A program made the position numbers and the translations under genes. From the NCBI RefSeq assembly GCF_003334765.1, contig NZ_QOWT01000013.1: a DNA stretch of 64,000 bases; one strand, 5' to 3'. The notes under the pieces are model-generated. The model was not told the origin of the DNA, did no database searches, and saw nothing but the letters and a program-made list of their open reading frames with translations. The DNA comes from Escherichia coli (GTDB lineage Bacteria; Pseudomonadota; Gammaproteobacteria; Enterobacterales; Enterobacteriaceae). Shown here piece after piece: positions 1-7,950 of this stretch (its first letter is position 1; each line of letters begins with the position of its first letter).

Positions 1-235
1 ATGACTCATGATGAACCCTGTTCCATGGCTCCAGATGACAAACATGATCTCATATCAGGGACTTGTTCGCACCTTCCTTAACAATCTTATATTTCCCTCT
101 GCGCGCCTTTCCTACCCGCAGTATATAGTGCAAGCGGTATGAGGAAAGGGAGATTTCACAAGGATGTTATACTCAAAGTAGACAATCCTGATCTCAAGCG
201 TACGTATTGTCCATGCGATGAATAAAGGAAAAGTT

Positions 236-541
236 ATGAAACACAAGCTTTCTGCAATCCTTATGGCCTTCATGTTGACGACGCCAGCTGCGTTTGCTGC
301 CCCTGAAGCAACAAACGGGACCGAGGCAACGACGGGTACTACTGGCACCACAACGACCACTACCGGCGCAACCACGACTGCTACTACCACTGGTGGCGTG
401 GCTGCTGGCGCTGTCGGCACGGCGACAGTTGTCGGTGTGGCAACGGCTGTTGGTGTGGCGACGTTGGCAGTTGTTGCAGCAAATGACAGTGGCGATGGCG
501 GTTCTCATAACACCTCAACCACCACGTCCACTACACGCTAA
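236..541 (+). CDS. gfcA: GfcA (YmcD), small Thr-rich protein; first gene of the gfc group-4-capsule operon
   Basis: ORF-track frame 218..541 trimmed to ATG at 236 (AAGGA about 6 nt upstream); 101 aa with N-terminal hydrophobic signal-like segment and a T/G/A low-complexity tract; recognised as E. coli GfcA. Confidence 0.85.
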   Translation: MKHKLSAILMAFMLTTPAAFAAPEATNGTEATTGTTGTTTTTTGATTTATTTGGVAAGAVGTATVVGVATAVGVATLAVVAANDSGDGGSHNTSTTTSTTR

Positions 542-647
542 TACCGCTTTAACGCGTCGAAATTAAAGTTAAATGATACCCGGTTGCGATATTCGTACCG
601 GGCTTTAGAGATTTGCATTTTTTTAATTAACCTTTCAAGGATTAAAG

Positions 648-1292
648 GTGCGCCCTCTTATTTTATCGATTTTCGCACTATTTCTTGCGGGATGTACGCA
701 CAGCCAGCAAAGTATGGTCGATACATTTCGCGCCAGCCTTTTCGATAATCAGGATATCACCGTAGCGGATCAGCAGATCCAGGCGTTGCCTTATTCCACT
801 ATGTATTTACGCCTTAATGAAGGGCAACGAATCTTTGTGGTACTGGGATATATAGAACAAGAACAAAGCAAATGGTTATCCCAGGATAACGCCATGCTGG
901 TTACCCACAATGGACGTCTTTTAAAAACCGTCAAACTTAATAATAATCTGCTGGAAGTGACAAATTCCGGGCAGGACCCTCTGCGTAACGCGCTGGCAAT
1001 AAAAGATGGCAGCCGCTGGACGCGCGATATTCTCTGGAGTGAAGACAACCATTTTCGCTCTGCGACCCTGAGTTCTACTTTTTCCTTTGCTGGATTAGAG
1101 ACGCTGAATATTGCGGGTCGCAATGTGCTGTGTAATGTCTGGCAGGAAGAGGTGACTTCCACGCGGCCAGAAAAACAGTGGCAAAACACATTCTGGGTCG
1201 ATTCGGCTACTGGCCAGGTTCGTCAAAGTCGGCAAATGTTAGGCGCAGGGGTTATTCCCGTAGAAATGACGTTTCTTAAACCCGCACCATGA
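648..1292 (+). CDS. gfcB: GfcB (YmcC) lipoprotein
   Basis: ORF track 648..1292, 214 aa, GTG start; signal peptide ending in LAGC lipobox; recognised as GfcB. Confidence 0.85.
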   Translation: MRPLILSIFALFLAGCTHSQQSMVDTFRASLFDNQDITVADQQIQALPYSTMYLRLNEGQRIFVVLGYIEQEQSKWLSQDNAMLVTHNGRLLKTVKLNNNLLEVTNSGQDPLRNALAIKDGSRWTRDILWSEDNHFRSATLSSTFSFAGLETLNIAGRNVLCNVWQEEVTSTRPEKQWQNTFWVDSATGQVRQSRQMLGAGVIPVEMTFLKPAP

Positions 1293-2035
1293 ATAAATTA
1301 CAGTCGTATTTCATTGCCAGCGTACTTTACGTAATGACACCCCATGCCTTTGCGCAAGGAACGGTGACTATTTATCTGCCTGGCGAACAACAGACACTTT
1401 CCGTTGGCCCCGTGGAAAATGTTGTCCAGTTGGTGACACAACCGCAACTGCGCGATCGCCTCTGGTGGCCTGGTGCCTTGCTGACCGACTCTGCGGCGAA
1501 AGCTAAAGCGCTTAAAGACTACCAACATGTCATGGCACAGCTTGCTTCCTGGGAAGCAGAAGCTGACGACGATGTGGCGGCAACGATTAAATCCGTGCGC
1601 CAGCAGTTACTCAATCTCAATATCACTGGTCGCTTACCGGTCAAACTGGACCCTGATTTTGTACGAGTGGATGAGAACAGCAATCCCCCGTTGGTCGGGG
1701 ACTATACGCTCTATACCGTACAGCGTCCGGTGACTATTACTCTGCTGGGTGCGGTTTCTGGGGCCGGGCAATTGCCCTGGCAGGCAGGCCGTAGCGTTAC
1801 CGATTATCTGCAAGATCACCCCCGCCTTGCAGGCGCGGACAAGAATAACGTTATGGTGATTACGCCTGAGGGTGAGACTGTCGTCGCCCCTGTTGCCCTG
1901 TGGAATAAAAGACATGTGGAACCACCGCCTGGCAGCCAGCTTTGGTTGGGCTTTTCTGCGCATGTACTGCCCGAAAAATATGCTGATTTAAATGACCAGA
2001 TTGTGTCTGTTTTAACGCAACGTGTTCCTGACTGA
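1289..2035 (+). CDS. gfcC: GfcC (YmcB) periplasmic capsule-assembly protein
   Basis: ORF track 1289..2035, 248 aa; ATG overlaps gfcB stop (ATGA); cleavable signal peptide; recognised as GfcC. Confidence 0.85.
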
Positions 2036-4131
2036 TGAAGAAGAATTCTTATCTTTTAAGCTGCCTGGCCATTGCCGTCTCCAGTGCCTGTCATGCTGAA
2101 GTATTAACCTACCCGGATCCGCTGGGTTCGTCGCAATCAGACTTTGGCGGCACAGGATTGTTGCAGATGCCAAATGCGCGCATCGCACCGGAAGGTGAAT
2201 TCAGCGTCAACTACCGGGATAACGATCAATACCGGTTCTACTCCACCTCCGTGGCGCTGTTCCCATGGCTGGAAGGCACCATTCGTTATACGGATGTGCG
2301 CACACGCAAATATAGCCAGTGGGAAGATTTCAGCGGCGATCAGTCATACAAAGACAAATCATTCGATTTTAAACTTCGCCTGTGGGAAGAAGGTTACTGG
2401 CTACCGCAAGTGGCGTTTGGTAAACGTGATATTGCTGGTACGGGTCTGTTTGACGGTGAGTATCTGGTGGCCAGCAAGCAAGCGGGGCCATTTGATTTCA
2501 CCCTCGGGATGGCATGGGGCTACGCCGGTAATGCGGGCAATATTACCAACCCGTTTTGCCGGGTGAGCGATAAATATTGTCATCGCGCAGAGTCTCACGA
2601 TGCGGGCGATATCAGCTTTAGCGATATCTTTCGTGGCCCGGCTTCCATCTTTGGCGGCATTGAGTATCAAACGCCGTGGAATCCCCTGCGTCTGAAACTC
2701 GAATACGATGGAAACAATTACCAGAATGATTTCGCTGGCAAACTGCCTCAGGCAAGCCATTTCAACGTCGGCGCAGTTTATCGCGCTGCCAGCTGGGCAG
2801 ATCTCAACCTGAGTTATGAACGCGGTAACACGTTGATGTTTGGCTTCACGTTACGGACCAATTTCAACGATCTGCGCCCTGCCCTGCGCGATACGCCAAA
2901 ACCGGCATATCAACCTGCGCCTGAATCTGAAGGATTGCAGTACACCACGGTAGCAAACCAACTTACCGCCCTGAAGTATAACGCGGGCTTTGACGCGCCA
3001 GAAATTCAGCTACGCGATAAGACACTGTATATGTCTGGTCAGCAATACAAATACCGTGACTCTCGTGAAGCGGTCGATCGTGCCAACCGGATTCTGGTGA
3101 ATAACCTGCCGCAAGGCGTTGAGAAGATTAGCGTGACGCAAAAGCGCGAGCATATGGCGATGGTGACTACCGAAACCGACGTAGCCAGCCTGCGCAAACA
3201 GCTGGCAGGTACAGCGCCTGGTCAATCAGAGCCACTGCAACAACAACGTGTTGAAGCTGAAGATCTTTCTGCCTTTGGTCGGGGCTACCGTATTCGTGAA
3301 GATCGCTTTAGCTACTCTTTCAACCCAACACTTTCACAGTCGCTGGGCGGCCCGGAAGATTTCTATATGTTCCAGCTGGGGCTGATGTCCAGTGCCCGCT
3401 ACTGGTTTACCGACCACCTGCTGCTTGATGGCGGTATTTTCACCAATATTTACAACAACTACGACAAGTTTAAGTCTTCGCTGTTGCCCGCGGACTCTAC
3501 CCTGCCCCGCGTGCGCACGCATATCCGTGACTACGTTCGCAATGACGTTTATCTCAACAACTTGCAGGCGAACTATTTTGCTGACTTAGGCAATGGTTTC
3601 TATGGCCAGGTGTATGGCGGTTATCTGGAAACGATGTACGCCGGTGTCGGTTCCGAGCTGCTTTATCGCCCGCTAGATGCCTGCTGGGCGCTGGGTGTGG
3701 ACGTTAACTACGTGAAGCAACGTGACTGGGACAACATGATGCGTTTCACCGATTATTCCACGCCAACAGGTTTCGTGACGGCTTACTGGAACCCGCCGAC
3801 GCTCAATGGCGTACTGATGAAACTTAGCGTTGGGCAATATCTGGCAAAAGATAAAGGCGCAACGATCGACGTCGCCAAACGCTTTGACAGCGGCGTGGCG
3901 GTAGGGGTATGGGCGGCAATCAGTAACGTATCTAAAGATGACTACGGCGAAGGCGGCTTTAGTAAAGGTTTTTATATCTCGATTCCATTCGACTTGATGA
4001 CCATTGGACCTAACCGCAACCGCGCGGTGGTTTCGTGGACACCATTGACGCGTGATGGTGGACAAATGCTGTCACGCAAATACCAGCTCTATCCAATGAC
4101 GGCAGAGCGAGAAGTACCGGTTGGACAATAA
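2035..4131 (+). CDS. gfcD: GfcD (YmcA) outer-membrane protein
   Basis: ORF track 2035..4131, 698 aa; ATG overlaps gfcC stop (TGATG); signal peptide; recognised as GfcD. Confidence 0.85.
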
Positions 4132-4176
4132 CCTGACGTAATTCATAACATTACATTGACTGATAAATATAAACCA

Positions 4177-5316
4177 ATGAAAAAGAACATTTTTAAGTTT
4201 TCGGTACTGACATTGGCTGTTCTGTCTTTGACAGCATGTACCCTTGTTCCTGGTCAGAATTTATCGACCAGTAACAAGGATGTCATTGAACTACCTGACA
4301 ATCAGTATGACCTGGACAAAATGGTCAATATCTATCCCGTCACGCCAGGATTGATTGATCAGTTGCGCGCCAAACCGATTATGTCGCAGGCTAACCCGGA
4401 GCTGGAGCAGCAAATCGCAAACTATGAATATCGTATCGGGATTGGTGATGTGTTGATGGTTACGGTCTGGGATCACCCGGAACTAACCACCCCCGCAGGG
4501 CAATACCGTAGCGCCAGTGATACCGGCAACTGGGTTAACGCCGATGGTGCGATTTTCTACCCCTATATTGGTCGCCTGAAAGTGGCCGGGAAAACACTTA
4601 CCCAGGTACGCAACGAGATTACAGCGCGTCTCGATTCAGTCATTGAAAGCCCGCAAGTCGATGTCAGCGTCGCGGCGTTCCGATCGCAAAAAGCGTACGT
4701 CACCGGCGAAGTCAGCAAATCGGGTCAGCAGCCGATTACCAATATTCCTCTGACCATCATGGATGCGATTAACGCCGCGGGCGGTCTGACCGCAGATGCA
4801 GACTGGCGCAACGTGGTGCTCACCCAGAATGGCGTAAAGACCAAAGTGAACCTCTATGCGCTGATGCAGCGTGGCGACTTGCGCCAGAACAAACTGCTGC
4901 ACCCGGGCGATATTTTATTTATTCCGCGCAACGATGATCTGAAAGTCTTCGTGATGGGTGAAGTGGGTAAACAGAGCACGCTGAAAATGGACCGCAGCGG
5001 TATGACCCTGGCGGAAGCGCTGGGTAACGCTGAGGGTATGAATCAGGATGTCGCTGATGCGACGGGGATTTTTGTTATTCGTGCAACGCAAAACAAGCAG
5101 AATGGCAAAATCGCCAATATTTATCAGCTGAATGCGAAGGACGCATCGGCAATGATACTCGGAACGGAATTCCAGCTTGAACCTTACGACATTGTTTATG
5201 TCACTACCGCGCCGCTGGCTCGTTGGAACCGTGTGATTTCTCTGCTGGTACCGACGATTTCCGGGGTGCATGACCTGACAGAGACTTCACGGTGGATTCA
5301 AACATGGCCCAACTAA
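4177..5316 (+). CDS. gfcE: GfcE (YccZ), Wza-family outer-membrane polysaccharide export lipoprotein
   Basis: ORF-track frame 4156..5316 trimmed to ATG 4177 (379 aa); lipoprotein signal (LTAC); Wza-like sequence. Confidence 0.85.
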
Positions 5317-5750
5317 AATTTAACTCAATCCTGGTGGTTTGTACCGGCAACATTTGCCGTTCGCCCATTGGCGAGCGCTTGCTGCGTAAACGTCTGCCGG
5401 GCGTAAAAGTCAAATCGGCAGGTGTTCATGGTCTGGTAAAACACCCTGCAGATGCGACAGCGGCAGATGTTGCCGCTAATCATGGCGTATCTCTTGAAGG
5501 ACATGCCGGACGTAAGCTCACTGCTGAGATGGCACGAAATTACGATCTGATTCTGGCAATGGAGTCGGAACATATTGCTCAGGTTACCGCAATTGCTCCC
5601 GAGGTCCGCGGGAAGACAATGCTGTTTGGGCAATGGCTGGAACAGAAAGAGATCCCGGATCCCTATCGTAAAAGTCAGGACGCATTTGAACATGTCTACG
5701 GTATGTTGGAGCGCGCCAGTCAGGAATGGGCGAAGCGCCTCAGCCGGTAA
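5304..5750 (+). CDS. etp: Etp (YccY) low-molecular-weight protein-tyrosine phosphatase
   Basis: ORF-track frame 5292..5750 trimmed to ATG 5304 (148 aa); CTGNICRS P-loop motif of LMW-PTPs; overlaps gfcE 3' end by 13 nt. Confidence 0.9.
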
Positions 5751-5769: not shown

Positions 5770-7950
5770 ATGACAACTAAAAATATGAATACGCCACCAG
5801 GCAGCACTCAGGAAAATGAGATCGATCTGCTTCGTCTGGTCGGCGAGTTATGGGATCACCGTAAGTTTATTATCAGCGTGACCGCGTTATTCACGCTGAT
5901 CGCTGTCGCTTACTCGCTGTTAAGCACACCAATTTATCAGGCAGATACTCTGGTCCAGGTTGAGCAAAAACAGGGCAACGCCATTCTCAGCGGCCTGAGC
6001 GATATGATCCCTAACTCATCGCCCGAGTCTGCACCGGAGATCCAACTGCTGCAATCGCGCATGATTCTCGGTAAAACCATTGCTGAACTGAATCTGCGCG
6101 ACATAGTTGAGCAGAAGTATTTTCCGATTGTGGGTCGCGGCTGGGCGAGATTAACCAAAGAAAAACCAGGTGAGCTGGCGATCAGCTGGATGCATATTCC
6201 ACAACTGAATGGTCAGGATCAGCAACTGACACTCACGGTTGGGGAAAACGGCCACTATACACTGGAAGGTGAAGAGTTCACCGTCAATGGTATGGTCGGC
6301 CAGCGTCTGGAAAAAGATGGCGTTGCGCTGACTATCGCGGACATTAAGGCCAAACCAGGAACACAGTTTGTCCTGAGCCAGCGTACCGAACTGGAAGCGA
6401 TTAACGCATTGCAGGAAACCTTTACCGTTAGCGAACGCAGTAAAGAAAGCGGGATGCTGGAACTTACCATGACTGGTGATGATCCCCAGTTGATTACTCG
6501 TATTCTGAACAGCATCGCTAACAACTATTTGCAACAGAATATCGCTCGCCAGGCGGCGCAGGATTCACAAAGCCTTGAATTCTTACAGCGCCAGTTACCT
6601 GAAGTGCGCAGCGAGCGGGACCAAGCGGAAGAAAAACTCAACGTTTATCGCCAGCAGCGCGATTCGGTTGACCTTAACCTGGAAGCCAAAGCCGTTCTTG
6701 AGCAGATTGTGAACGTTGATAATCAACTCAATGAGCTGACCTTCCGCGAGGCAGAGATCTCCCAGCTGTATAAGAAAGATCACCCAACTTATCGTGCGCT
6801 GCTGGAAAAACGCCAGACGCTGGAGCAAGAACGCAAACGCCTGAATAAGCGGGTATCGGCAATGCCTTCCACCCAACAGGAAGTGTTGCGTTTAAGTCGT
6901 GACGTAGAAGCGGGCCGTGCGGTATATCTGCAATTACTTAACCGCCAGCAGGAGTTGAGTATTTCGAAATCCAGTGCCATTGGTAACGTGCGGATTATCG
7001 ACCCGGCAGTCACTCAGCCGCAGCCAGTGAAACCGAAAAAAGCGTTGAACGTGGTGCTTGGTTTTATTCTTGGCCTGTTTATTTCTGTGGGTGCCGTGCT
7101 GGCGCGTGCGATGTTGCGTCGTGGTGTAGAAGCCCCGGAACAACTGGAAGAGCACGGCATCAGCGTTTATGCCACTATCCCAATGTCCGAGTGGCTGGAT
7201 AAACGCACCCGTCTGCGTAAGAAAAATTTATTTTCTAATCAGCAGCGCCATCGTACTAAAAATATCCCCTTCCTGGCGGTGGATAACCCGGCGGATTCTG
7301 CTGTGGAAGCCGTACGTGCGCTACGAACCAGTCTGCATTTCGCTATGATGGAGACGGAGAATAACATTCTAATGATCACCGGTGCGACGCCAGACAGTGG
7401 TAAAACGTTTGTCAGTTCAACTCTGGCAGCGGTGATCGCCCAGTCCGATCAAAAAGTGTTATTTATTGATGCCGACTTACGCCGTGGTTATTCGCATAAC
7501 CTGTTTACCGTGAGTAATGAACATGGCTTGTCGGAATATCTGGCAGGTAAAGATGAGCTCAACAAAGTGATCCAGCATTTTGGCAAAGGAGGCTTTGATG
7601 TGATTACTCGCGGTCAGGTGCCACCTAACCCGTCTGAACTGCTGATGCGCGATCGGATGCGTCAATTACTGGAATGGGCGAACGACCATTACGATCTGGT
7701 GATTGTCGATACGCCGCCGATGCTGGCGGTGAGTGATGCCGCGGTCGTGGGGCGTTCTGTTGGCACCAGCCTGCTGGTTGCGCGTTTTGGCTTGAACACC
7801 GCCAAAGAGGTGAGTTTGTCAATGCAGCGTCTGGAACAGGCAGGCGTCAATATTAAAGGCGCTATCCTCAATGGTGTGATTAAACGCGCCAGCACCGCTT
7901 ACAGTTACGGCTATAACTATTACGGTTATAGTTACTCCGAGAAAGAGTAA
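5770..7950 (+). CDS. etk: Etk (YccC) Wzc-family BY-kinase (tyrosine autokinase)
   Basis: ORF track 5770..7950, 726 aa; Walker A (GATPDSGKT), C-terminal tyrosine cluster YSYGYNYYGYSY. Confidence 0.9.
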   Translation: MTTKNMNTPPGSTQENEIDLLRLVGELWDHRKFIISVTALFTLIAVAYSLLSTPIYQADTLVQVEQKQGNAILSGLSDMIPNSSPESAPEIQLLQSRMILGKTIAELNLRDIVEQKYFPIVGRGWARLTKEKPGELAISWMHIPQLNGQDQQLTLTVGENGHYTLEGEEFTVNGMVGQRLEKDGVALTIADIKAKPGTQFVLSQRTELEAINALQETFTVSERSKESGMLELTMTGDDPQLITRILNSIANNYLQQNIARQAAQDSQSLEFLQRQLPEVRSERDQAEEKLNVYRQQRDSVDLNLEAKAVLEQIVNVDNQLNELTFREAEISQLYKKDHPTYRALLEKRQTLEQERKRLNKRVSAMPSTQQEVLRLSRDVEAGRAVYLQLLNRQQELSISKSSAIGNVRIIDPAVTQPQPVKPKKALNVVLGFILGLFISVGAVLARAMLRRGVEAPEQLEEHGISVYATIPMSEWLDKRTRLRKKNLFSNQQRHRTKNIPFLAVDNPADSAVEAVRALRTSLHFAMMETENNILMITGATPDSGKTFVSSTLAAVIAQSDQKVLFIDADLRRGYSHNLFTVSNEHGLSEYLAGKDELNKVIQHFGKGGFDVITRGQVPPNPSELLMRDRMRQLLEWANDHYDLVIVDTPPMLAVSDAAVVGRSVGTSLLVARFGLNTAKEVSLSMQRLEQAGVNIKGAILNGVIKRASTAYSYGYNYYGYSYSEKE

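Follow-up and report, generated by a model that had tools for sequence, protein, structure and literature searches.

Modular anatomy of GfcA, the threonine-rich first product of the group 4 capsule operon of Escherichia coli, and its putative membership of the YjbE family

Introduction

The gene gfcA is the first of the group 4 capsule operon gfcABCDE-etp-etk, and its product has been described as a protein of 30% threonine, located in the inner membrane or secreted. One source calls it natively unstructured, and another ‘entirely uncharacterized’. A signal peptide of 21 residues is listed in UniProt (P75885) and has been scored as Sec/SPI (PMC10278209), and a preprint on soft-rot bacteria reports a highly variable gfcA locus with a conserved signal peptide. 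In EPEC, the capsule is lost upon in-frame deletion of gfcA and restored by gfcA alone on a plasmid, and the gfcA transcript stands about 70-fold above those of four other surface-structure genes (PMC3853201). Among publications of the years 2022 to 2026, our searches brought up no new work on the function of GfcA.

Among the closest described systems is that of YjbE, whose gene opens the exopolysaccharide operon yjbEFGH. Both GfcA and YjbE are small Sec-exported proteins of low complexity, encoded 5′ of paralogous genes (those of YjbF, YjbG and YjbH in the case of YjbE), and both carry a GxAAG motif, a GDG motif and a poly-Thr C-terminus; YjbE, however, is without the long Thr tract that follows the signal peptide in GfcA, and its hydrophobic stretch counts only 9–12 residues. 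The gene of a YjbE-family member is directly followed by those of a lipoprotein (YjbF/GfcB), a periplasmic protein (GfcC type) and an outer-membrane protein with a double barrel (YjbH/GfcD), and published fold recognition places the N-terminal barrel of GfcD/YjbH in the family of FapF, a polypeptide exporter. The Fap subunits of Pseudomonas offer a further likeness, by analogy only, as GfcA is likewise small and exported, lacks structure in the predictions and shares its operon with a FapF-like barrel. Two more kinds of system bear on repetitive, Thr-rich coding DNA such as that of gfcA, namely mucin-like or O-glycosylated Ser/Thr-rich regions, and the simple-sequence contingency loci that Neisseria and Haemophilus have.

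In this work we examine gfcA in a stretch of 64,000 nucleotides of E. coli DNA (the window), where an initial annotation had singled out the low-complexity tract of the encoded protein. The explanation we arrive at, to which we give a probability of about 0.6, is that of a known gene of modular build, with a Thr expansion in Escherichia and a proposed role for its product as partner or cargo of the outer-membrane proteins encoded downstream.

Results

Identity and surroundings of the gene

The name given to the gene in the initial annotation is borne out by 100% nucleotide identity over 306 nt to annotated gfcA, including that of K-12 MG1655 (WP_001295358.1), and by the order of the operon. 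Its 101-aa product reads, in translation, MKHKLSAILMAFMLTTPAAFAAPEATNGTEATTGTTGTTTTTTGATTTATTTGGVAAGAVGTATVVGVATAVGVATLAVVAANDSGDGGSHNTSTTTSTTR. The ORFs that follow on the 3′ side (648–1292, 1289–2035, 2035–4131, 4156–5316, 5292–5750 and 5770–7950) correspond to gfcB, gfcC, gfcD, gfcE, etp and etk, in agreement with the annotated K-12 operon; gfcB to gfcD (window 648–4131) matched annotated genes directly, and gfcE, etp and etk were placed by their order only. A Shine-Dalgarno-like AAGGA can be read at 225–229, 5′ of gfcA. Compared to K-12, the gene has the same position in the operon, encodes the same 21-residue signal peptide and shows no internal difference, whereas its upstream side is occupied by an IS5 end (1–77) instead of the IS1 found in K-12 about 25–33 bp before the start codon. 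No NCBIfam match was found for the GfcA, GfcB, GfcC or GfcD proteins, and E. coli GfcA has no Pfam match either, including none to PF11106 (YjbE). The tract is part of a known gene, the name of which already refers to its high threonine content, and as a feature it was already known. The coordinates of all features are collected in Table 1.

Table 1. Features of gfcA and its 3′ spacer (window positions).
Feature	Position	Strand	Basis or remark
gfcA CDS	236..541	+	101 codons plus stop; ORF list and translation
Sec signal peptide, residues 1–21, MKHKLSAILMAFMLTTPAAFA	236..298	+	basic N-terminal region, hydrophobic region, AxA site
Thr/Gly-rich low-complexity spacer, residues 24–54	305..397	+	composition, family alignment
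Gly/Ala/Val hydrophobic core, residues 55–82, VAAGAVGTATVVGVATAVGVATLAVVAA; candidate membrane helix	398..481	+	hydropathy, family alignment
Polar C-terminal tail, residues 83–101, NDSGDGGSHNTSTTTSTTR	482..538	+	GDG motif, Thr-rich end, terminal Arg
Imperfect 21-nt (7-codon, TTG[T/A]TTT) tandem repeat, two copies, 80% identity	338..378	+	Tandem Repeats Finder
Internal 18-nt imperfect duplication, VGVATA / VGVATL, 13/18 bases identical	431..466	+	codon table
Spurious antisense ORF, 102 aa	112..420	-	ORF list
Spurious antisense ORF, 104 aa	194..508	-	ORF list
Stem-loop in gfcA-gfcB spacer, CCCGGTTGCGATATTCGTACCGGG	579..602	+	RNA fold; T-rich stretch then runs to 624

Two modules in one tract

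The claim that residues of about 24 to 82 are almost all T, G, A and V stands up to counting, since residues 24–82 (nt 305–481) contain these four at 55 of 59 positions (T 22, A 14, G 10, V 9). The binomial chance of such a composition is about 1e-24, and that of the 30 Thr among the 101 residues of the whole protein about 1e-14. Nevertheless, the initial annotation merged two different modules here. Residues 24–54 are hydrophilic (18 T, 6 G, 4 A, 2 E, 1 N), while residues 55–82 consist of 10 A, 9 V, 4 G, 4 T and 1 L. A mucin-like character could apply to the first module, which is Thr-rich and predicted to be disordered, but not to the second, which is a conserved hydrophobic core. Signal-peptide cleavage is predicted after AFA, ahead of both.

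GfcA as a putative member of the YjbE family

Relatives were gathered through the neighbouring GfcD/YjbH, which gave 80 loci in species-representative genomes, all of them Enterobacterales. In 79 of these 80 loci an ORF of 71–101 aa lies just 5′ of the gfcB/yjbF homologue, and the 73 distinct small proteins so encoded have a common architecture, with a signal peptide that ends in an AxA-like site, an Ala/Gly/Ser/Thr stretch, a Gly/Ala/Val/Leu hydrophobic stretch, a GDG(S/A)N-type motif and a poly-Thr C-terminus. The signal peptide is conserved across all 79 loci, and so is a C-terminal run of three to seven Thr (T3–T7), mostly ending in R or Q. The hydrophobic stretch varies in length, YjbE-type sequences having 9–12 residues, those of the Pantoea/Erwinia type 17–21, and most of the GfcA type 30. 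Conservation is highest in the C-terminal GDG motif with its poly-Thr tail; in an alignment of 21 sequences G61, T96, T97 and T99 are invariant, and G54, A56, A57, G58, A81, A82, D87 and T95 are conserved in at least 90%. PF11106 matches 12 of these 21 aligned members and is on record for one GfcA-type orthologue (P0032) located within a complete gfc operon.

The long Thr tract (residues 24–54) behaves differently, being seen in its long form only in the three Escherichia loci and replaced by gaps in all members outside Escherichia. Its place is taken by 10–19 residues in the five other GfcA-type sequences recovered (from Enterobacter, Superficieibacter, a metagenome-assembled genome and a metagenome contig), and in E. 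albertii the tract is 5–7 residues shorter. Hydrophobic core, GDG motif and C-terminal poly-Thr tail are thus the parts conserved family-wide, and the long Thr tract is not; judging by the alignment, it is an expansion seen only in Escherichia loci.

Low complexity defeats the tools by which homology is commonly detected. BLASTP of GfcA against YjbE gave no alignment, and hhalign of the GfcA-type against the YjbE-type alignment paired only residues 1–24, that is the signal peptides. Of the only 14 matches returned by an exhaustive phmmer search with GfcA, two relatives were informative (P0029 and P0032), and a search with P0032 found only P0032 itself. It is therefore on grounds of synteny, architecture and intermediate sequences, and not of statistics, that we place GfcA in the YjbE family, as what seems to be a divergent member.

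What a word-indexed protein search with GfcA brought up were for the most part E. coli translations with frameshifts or truncations, and an exact look-up of the canonical 101-aa and 107-aa forms in the protein collection gave no match. The frameshifted gfcA-like translations among database proteins come mostly from short contigs and are likely sequencing or assembly errors.

Repetitiveness of the DNA

The DNA of the tract had been described as a run of near-repeated triplets, which is right as a statement on composition but not on DNA repeats, as no codon occurs more than twice in a row and the longest exact direct repeat measures 8 nt (GGTGTGGC, at 434 and 452, inside the 18-nt duplication of Table 1). 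Thr codons are mixed (10 ACG, 9 ACC, 7 ACT, 4 ACA), and the 21-nt unit in Table 1 is the only repeat reported by Tandem Repeats Finder. Repeated hexamer pairs are more numerous than after base shuffles (15 against 4.8 ± 2.8), though not when the same peptide is recoded with its own codons in 5,000 versions (21.9 ± 6.0), where the longest exact repeat averages 9.1 ± 1.4 against the observed 8. Since the recoded versions are as repetitive or more so, the repetitiveness stems from amino-acid composition and not from recent amplification at the DNA level.

Both antisense ORFs exist as annotated, and the judgement that they are spurious agrees with the variation among six E. coli alleles, where 21 of 26 variable sites fall at third codon positions of the + frame. 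It is accordingly the + frame that is under selection, and the antisense ORFs are by-products of the composition. Within E. coli, the amino-acid sequence of GfcA is under purifying selection.

Length variation across strains

At a carriage threshold of at least 80% of the gene, gfcA is present in 3,592 of 5,426 complete E. coli genomes. A sample of matches taken at even steps with the 306-nt CDS as query gave 59 full-length matches, all of 306 nt, and a similar sample with a 551-nt query gave 58, with a single length variant of the CDS; another match in the latter sample has a deletion of 9 nt, located in the gfcA-gfcB spacer and so outside the gene. Variant alleles were then used as queries themselves. 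An allele longer by 18 nt was found in 5 genomes, identical in all of them (three are typed O169:H41), and one longer by 21 nt in 1 genome, RMDEC465, while all other full-length matches listed, also with the variant alleles as queries, are of 306 nt. Both insertions are perfect in-frame tandem duplications directly after window position 336, a point that coincides in the allele alignment with the start of the imperfect 21-nt repeat, and they must be independent events, since they sit on different allele backgrounds. Identity to the 306-nt query is below 95% in at most 28 records, of which several are substitution-only alleles, and indels of 16 nt or more therefore occur in well under 1% of genomes. 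No indels below 16 nt were seen among the matches listed, and no frameshifting length change in the six alleles from complete genomes that were fetched and translated.

In-frame length polymorphism, as expected in the initial annotation, does exist, but it is rare (6 of 3,592 genomes); the alternative that the annotation had allowed for, a tract of one length in all strains, is not what we find. Similarly, the supposed proneness to slippage is supported by the two tandem duplications and contradicted by a DNA without perfect repeats. Slippage-type events do occur in the tract, yet the locus is neither hypervariable nor phase-variable. In-frame tandem duplication of units of 18–21 nt is how the Thr tract was built and how it is still altered on occasion.

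These figures also bear on whether the tract could be a contingency locus, in which slipped-strand mispairing switches or tunes the expression of the capsule. Like the loci of Neisseria and Haemophilus, gfcA has repetitive coding DNA, belongs to a surface structure and possesses rare tandem-duplication alleles, and the two independent in-frame duplications (+18 and +21 nt), together with the imperfect repeat at 338–378, are what such a locus could produce. Unlike those loci, however, it has no perfect short repeats, no exact repeat reaching even 9 nt and its synonymous codons being mixed, and more than 99% of strains share one length, five of the six genomes that differ carrying the same allele and the records below 95% identity being as few as stated. 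Nor is there frameshift switching in the alleles examined from complete genomes. With perfect short repeats and frequent length differences both absent, we reject this possibility, whose chance we consider next to nil.

The hairpin behind the gene

Every one of the 73 distinct homologous spacers examined has a hairpin of -12 kcal/mol or stronger behind the small gene. In YjbE-type loci its stem is conserved (ATAACCACAC/GTGTGGTTAT) and accompanied by a T run, and in GfcA-type loci the stems are CCCGG/CCGGG with covarying inner pairs. Rfam holds no family for window positions 1–1000, and a terminator scan of positions 1–700 found none. So conserved a hairpin fits an excess expression of the first gene.

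The same hairpin could be taken as part of a cis-acting device, with gfcA serving mainly as a leader ORF whose Thr codons, as in the thr operon leader, couple the operon to the supply of threonyl-tRNA. Its 30 Thr codons in a small first ORF and the conserved hairpin downstream would suit such a role. Against it, gfcA complements in trans, the plasmid-borne gene alone making up for the EPEC deletion, so that it is the protein that acts (PMC3853201). Signal peptide, core and tail are, moreover, conserved as protein across genera, the hairpin begins 38 nt after the stop codon, beyond the footprint of a terminating ribosome, and YjbE-type relatives are rich in Ser and Ala, not in Thr, before the tail. 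On trans complementation, protein-level conservation and hairpin distance a leader role is rejected as very improbable.

Hydrophobic core and membrane location

The core is a candidate membrane helix, and GfcA might be a single-pass inner-membrane protein, with residues 55–82 as stop-transfer helix, the Thr tract as a flexible periplasmic stalk, and a Gly/Ala face of the helix packed against Etk or the Wzx/Wzy machinery. A hydrophobic stretch of 28–30 residues is long enough for this, with a Kyte-Doolittle 19-residue maximum of 2.16 at residues 63–81, and it is conserved in GfcA-type orthologues at the length of 30 residues. AlphaFold2, run with the 21-sequence family alignment, places a helix of low confidence at residues 57–83 behind a coil at residues 21–56 (pLDDT below 45 for residues 24–54). 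Weak, non-significant profile matches to the Gly/Ala-rich ring subunits of V-ATPases (E of about 0.3) point the same way, as do the RefSeq and UniProt product names, which say inner-membrane protein, and transmembrane segments predicted for GfcA-like proteins in a preprint.

Several observations oppose this reading. The YjbE-type paralogues have only 9–12 hydrophobic residues and yet the same tail and the same outer-membrane partners. Summed roughly on the Hessa scale without regard to position, the cost of inserting the GfcA core comes to about +1 kcal/mol or worse, a borderline value for a transmembrane segment, and the mean pLDDT of the AlphaFold2 model is only 49. Lastly, the flank that follows the core is acidic and not basic; it reads NDSGDGG in GfcA and is acidic in all GfcA-type orthologues (AAND, AATD and AASDDD in relatives). 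Under the positive-inside rule, an acidic flank argues against a cytoplasmic tail. Taken together, we regard an inner-membrane GfcA as doubtful, if still a serious contender.

When GfcB, GfcC and GfcA were modelled by AlphaFold2 as one fusion (GfcB-linker-GfcC-linker-GfcA), GfcB and GfcC reached a pLDDT of about 90 and GfcA stayed unstructured at 24–30, with no support for its docking to either. PDB sequence searches found nothing with GfcD, for which no sequence relation to solved structures was detected, and only insignificant matches with the GfcA family.

Discussion

The part of our explanation that concerns function is its least certain one. Mature GfcA could serve the GfcB/C/D outer-membrane module as its partner or cargo instead of being a stable protein of the inner membrane, a reading that we infer from the comparisons above and to which we allow somewhat less than an even chance. 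GfcA would be exported by Sec, its signal peptide cleaved, and the mature protein made in stoichiometric excess; its hydrophobic core would be the element bound or inserted at the GfcB/C/D module, whereas its Thr-rich stretches would form extended hydrophilic spacers in contact with the O-antigen capsule polymer, which they might also carry and which they would help to keep on the cell surface. The role thus ascribed to the Thr residues is wholly inferred.

We tie GfcA to the B/C/D module because the small gene stays with homologues of gfcB, gfcC and gfcD even in yjbEFGH, an operon without wza, wzb and wzc. The cargo reading is suggested by three further points, namely that YjbE-type cores of 9–12 residues are too short for the inner membrane and yet keep the same tail, that the acidic flank behind the core argues against a cytoplasmic tail, and that GfcD reportedly has a FapF-like barrel at its N-terminus, FapF being an exporter of polypeptides. 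Excess expression is proposed because of the conserved hairpin after the small gene together with the roughly 70-fold level of the gfcA transcript in EPEC. On the other side, the length of the GfcA core would suffice for a membrane helix, the databases name the inner membrane, GfcA is unstructured in the fusion model, and profile comparison with YjbE pairs only the signal peptides, all of which counts against the cargo reading.

It is tempting to carry the cargo reading further and to see in GfcA and YjbE polypeptides with an amyloid- or strand-like Gly/Ala/Val core, threaded through or beside the FapF-like double barrel so that the poly-Thr tail and the Thr tract are displayed at the surface as protein anchor or primer of the group 4 capsule. 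Compared with Fap functional-amyloid secretion, however, the passage of GfcA through GfcD, or its assembly into fibres, would be a matter of analogy alone, and we think this elaboration unlikely.

The Thr stretches might be O-glycosylated in mucin-like fashion, making GfcA a small carrier of O-antigen or another glycan, exported via GfcD; such modification is compatible with either location of the protein. The idea has been in print since 2021, as speculation (PMC8592465), and the heterogeneous encapsulation of EPEC after loss of waaL could be read in its favor (PMC3853201). GfcA is 30% Thr and predicted to be exported, its poly-Thr tail is conserved family-wide, and it shares with mucin-like or O-glycosylated Ser/Thr-rich regions a high Thr content in an exported stretch predicted to be disordered, a description that holds for residues 24–54 and 93–100 only. 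In other respects it differs from them, being free of proline from residue 24 to residue 101 and having no glycosyltransferase or oligosaccharyltransferase among the seven genes of its operon as annotated, and a tract of which half is hydrophobic. GfcA orthologues outside Escherichia do without the long Thr tract, and K-12 retains YjbE with the same tail. K-12 is not known to make O-antigen. The literature we searched also yielded no mass-spectrometric or gel evidence of glycosylation, and we consider a glycosylated GfcA rather improbable.

Much of what surrounds the tract, i.e., the gene itself, its Thr richness, its variability between genera and the idea of glycosylation, was already in the literature or in database names. 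What this work changes is that length variation of the tract is now quantified as rare, and the idea of phase variation thereby removed. GfcA belongs to a capsule system that EPEC and EHEC need, and the comparative results narrow the question of what GfcA/YjbE proteins do. The coupling of the small gene to its B/C/D neighbours, the acidic flank behind the core and the conserved hairpin behind the gene would together make for a concrete and testable model, in which GfcA may be the cargo of the outer-membrane module.

Results and Discussion

The small first gene of the group 4 capsule operon, gfcA, is undetectable in 1,818 of the 5,426 complete E. coli genomes (about one third), and gfcB-gfcD are missing from 1,710, which is about as many; therefore, the whole gfc module is polymorphic for presence/absence in this species. 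In some strains gfcA has been lost through IS1-associated deletions, whilst in others gfcC or gfcD is interrupted by IS1 insertions. The operon is a recurrent target of this element, as seen at two of the fetched loci (L006:749-1446 and L007:788-1485) and in two hits of the genome search (H238 and H251).

The window itself opens with the end of an IS5 element, where the start of the transposase gene reads GGAAGGTGCGAACAAGTCCC...ATGAGTCAT on the reverse complement. Native DNA adjoins this end from position 78, and gfcA starts 158 bp downstream of the junction. In K-12, however, the element upstream of gfcA is IS1 and not IS5, about 25-33 bp from the start codon, and none of the 5,426 complete E. 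coli genomes carries the IS5-gfcA upstream junction as a single contiguous match.

Features of the gfcA region
Feature	Window position	Other locus	Remark
IS5 element end	1-77		Reverse complement is the transposase gene start
GDG motif and poly-Thr tail, GfcA C-terminus	482-538		Outside the tract (residues 24-82) described in the initial annotation
Stem-loop, gfcA-gfcB spacer	579-602	L005:2217-2240 (fetched locus)	

Each of the 73 distinct homologous spacers examined has a stem-loop, which follows the small first gene and precedes the next one. A common stem, ATAACCACAC-NNNN-GTGTGGTTAT, with a T run after it, is shared by the YjbE-type loci, and GfcA-type loci have CCCGG/CCGGG stems, the inner pairs of which covary. 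The structure, for which there is no match in Rfam, may be a partial terminator or a hairpin that stabilises the mRNA. At one fetched locus (L001, NZ_CP028752.1), a 9-nt deletion shortens the spacer that separates gfcA from gfcB, and the length of gfcA itself is normal.

In RefSeq, gfcA alleles with only one or a few residue differences relative to the reference are named 'hypothetical protein' instead of GfcA, and so are the duplication alleles of this gene. The name appears to depend on a near-exact match, because no NCBIfam model matches GfcA.

Across the whole GfcA/YjbE family, the best-conserved low-complexity feature is the C-terminal GDG motif with its poly-Thr tail, which in most YjbE-type proteins is T7. 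For functional tests, this motif and tail are a better target than the long Thr tract.
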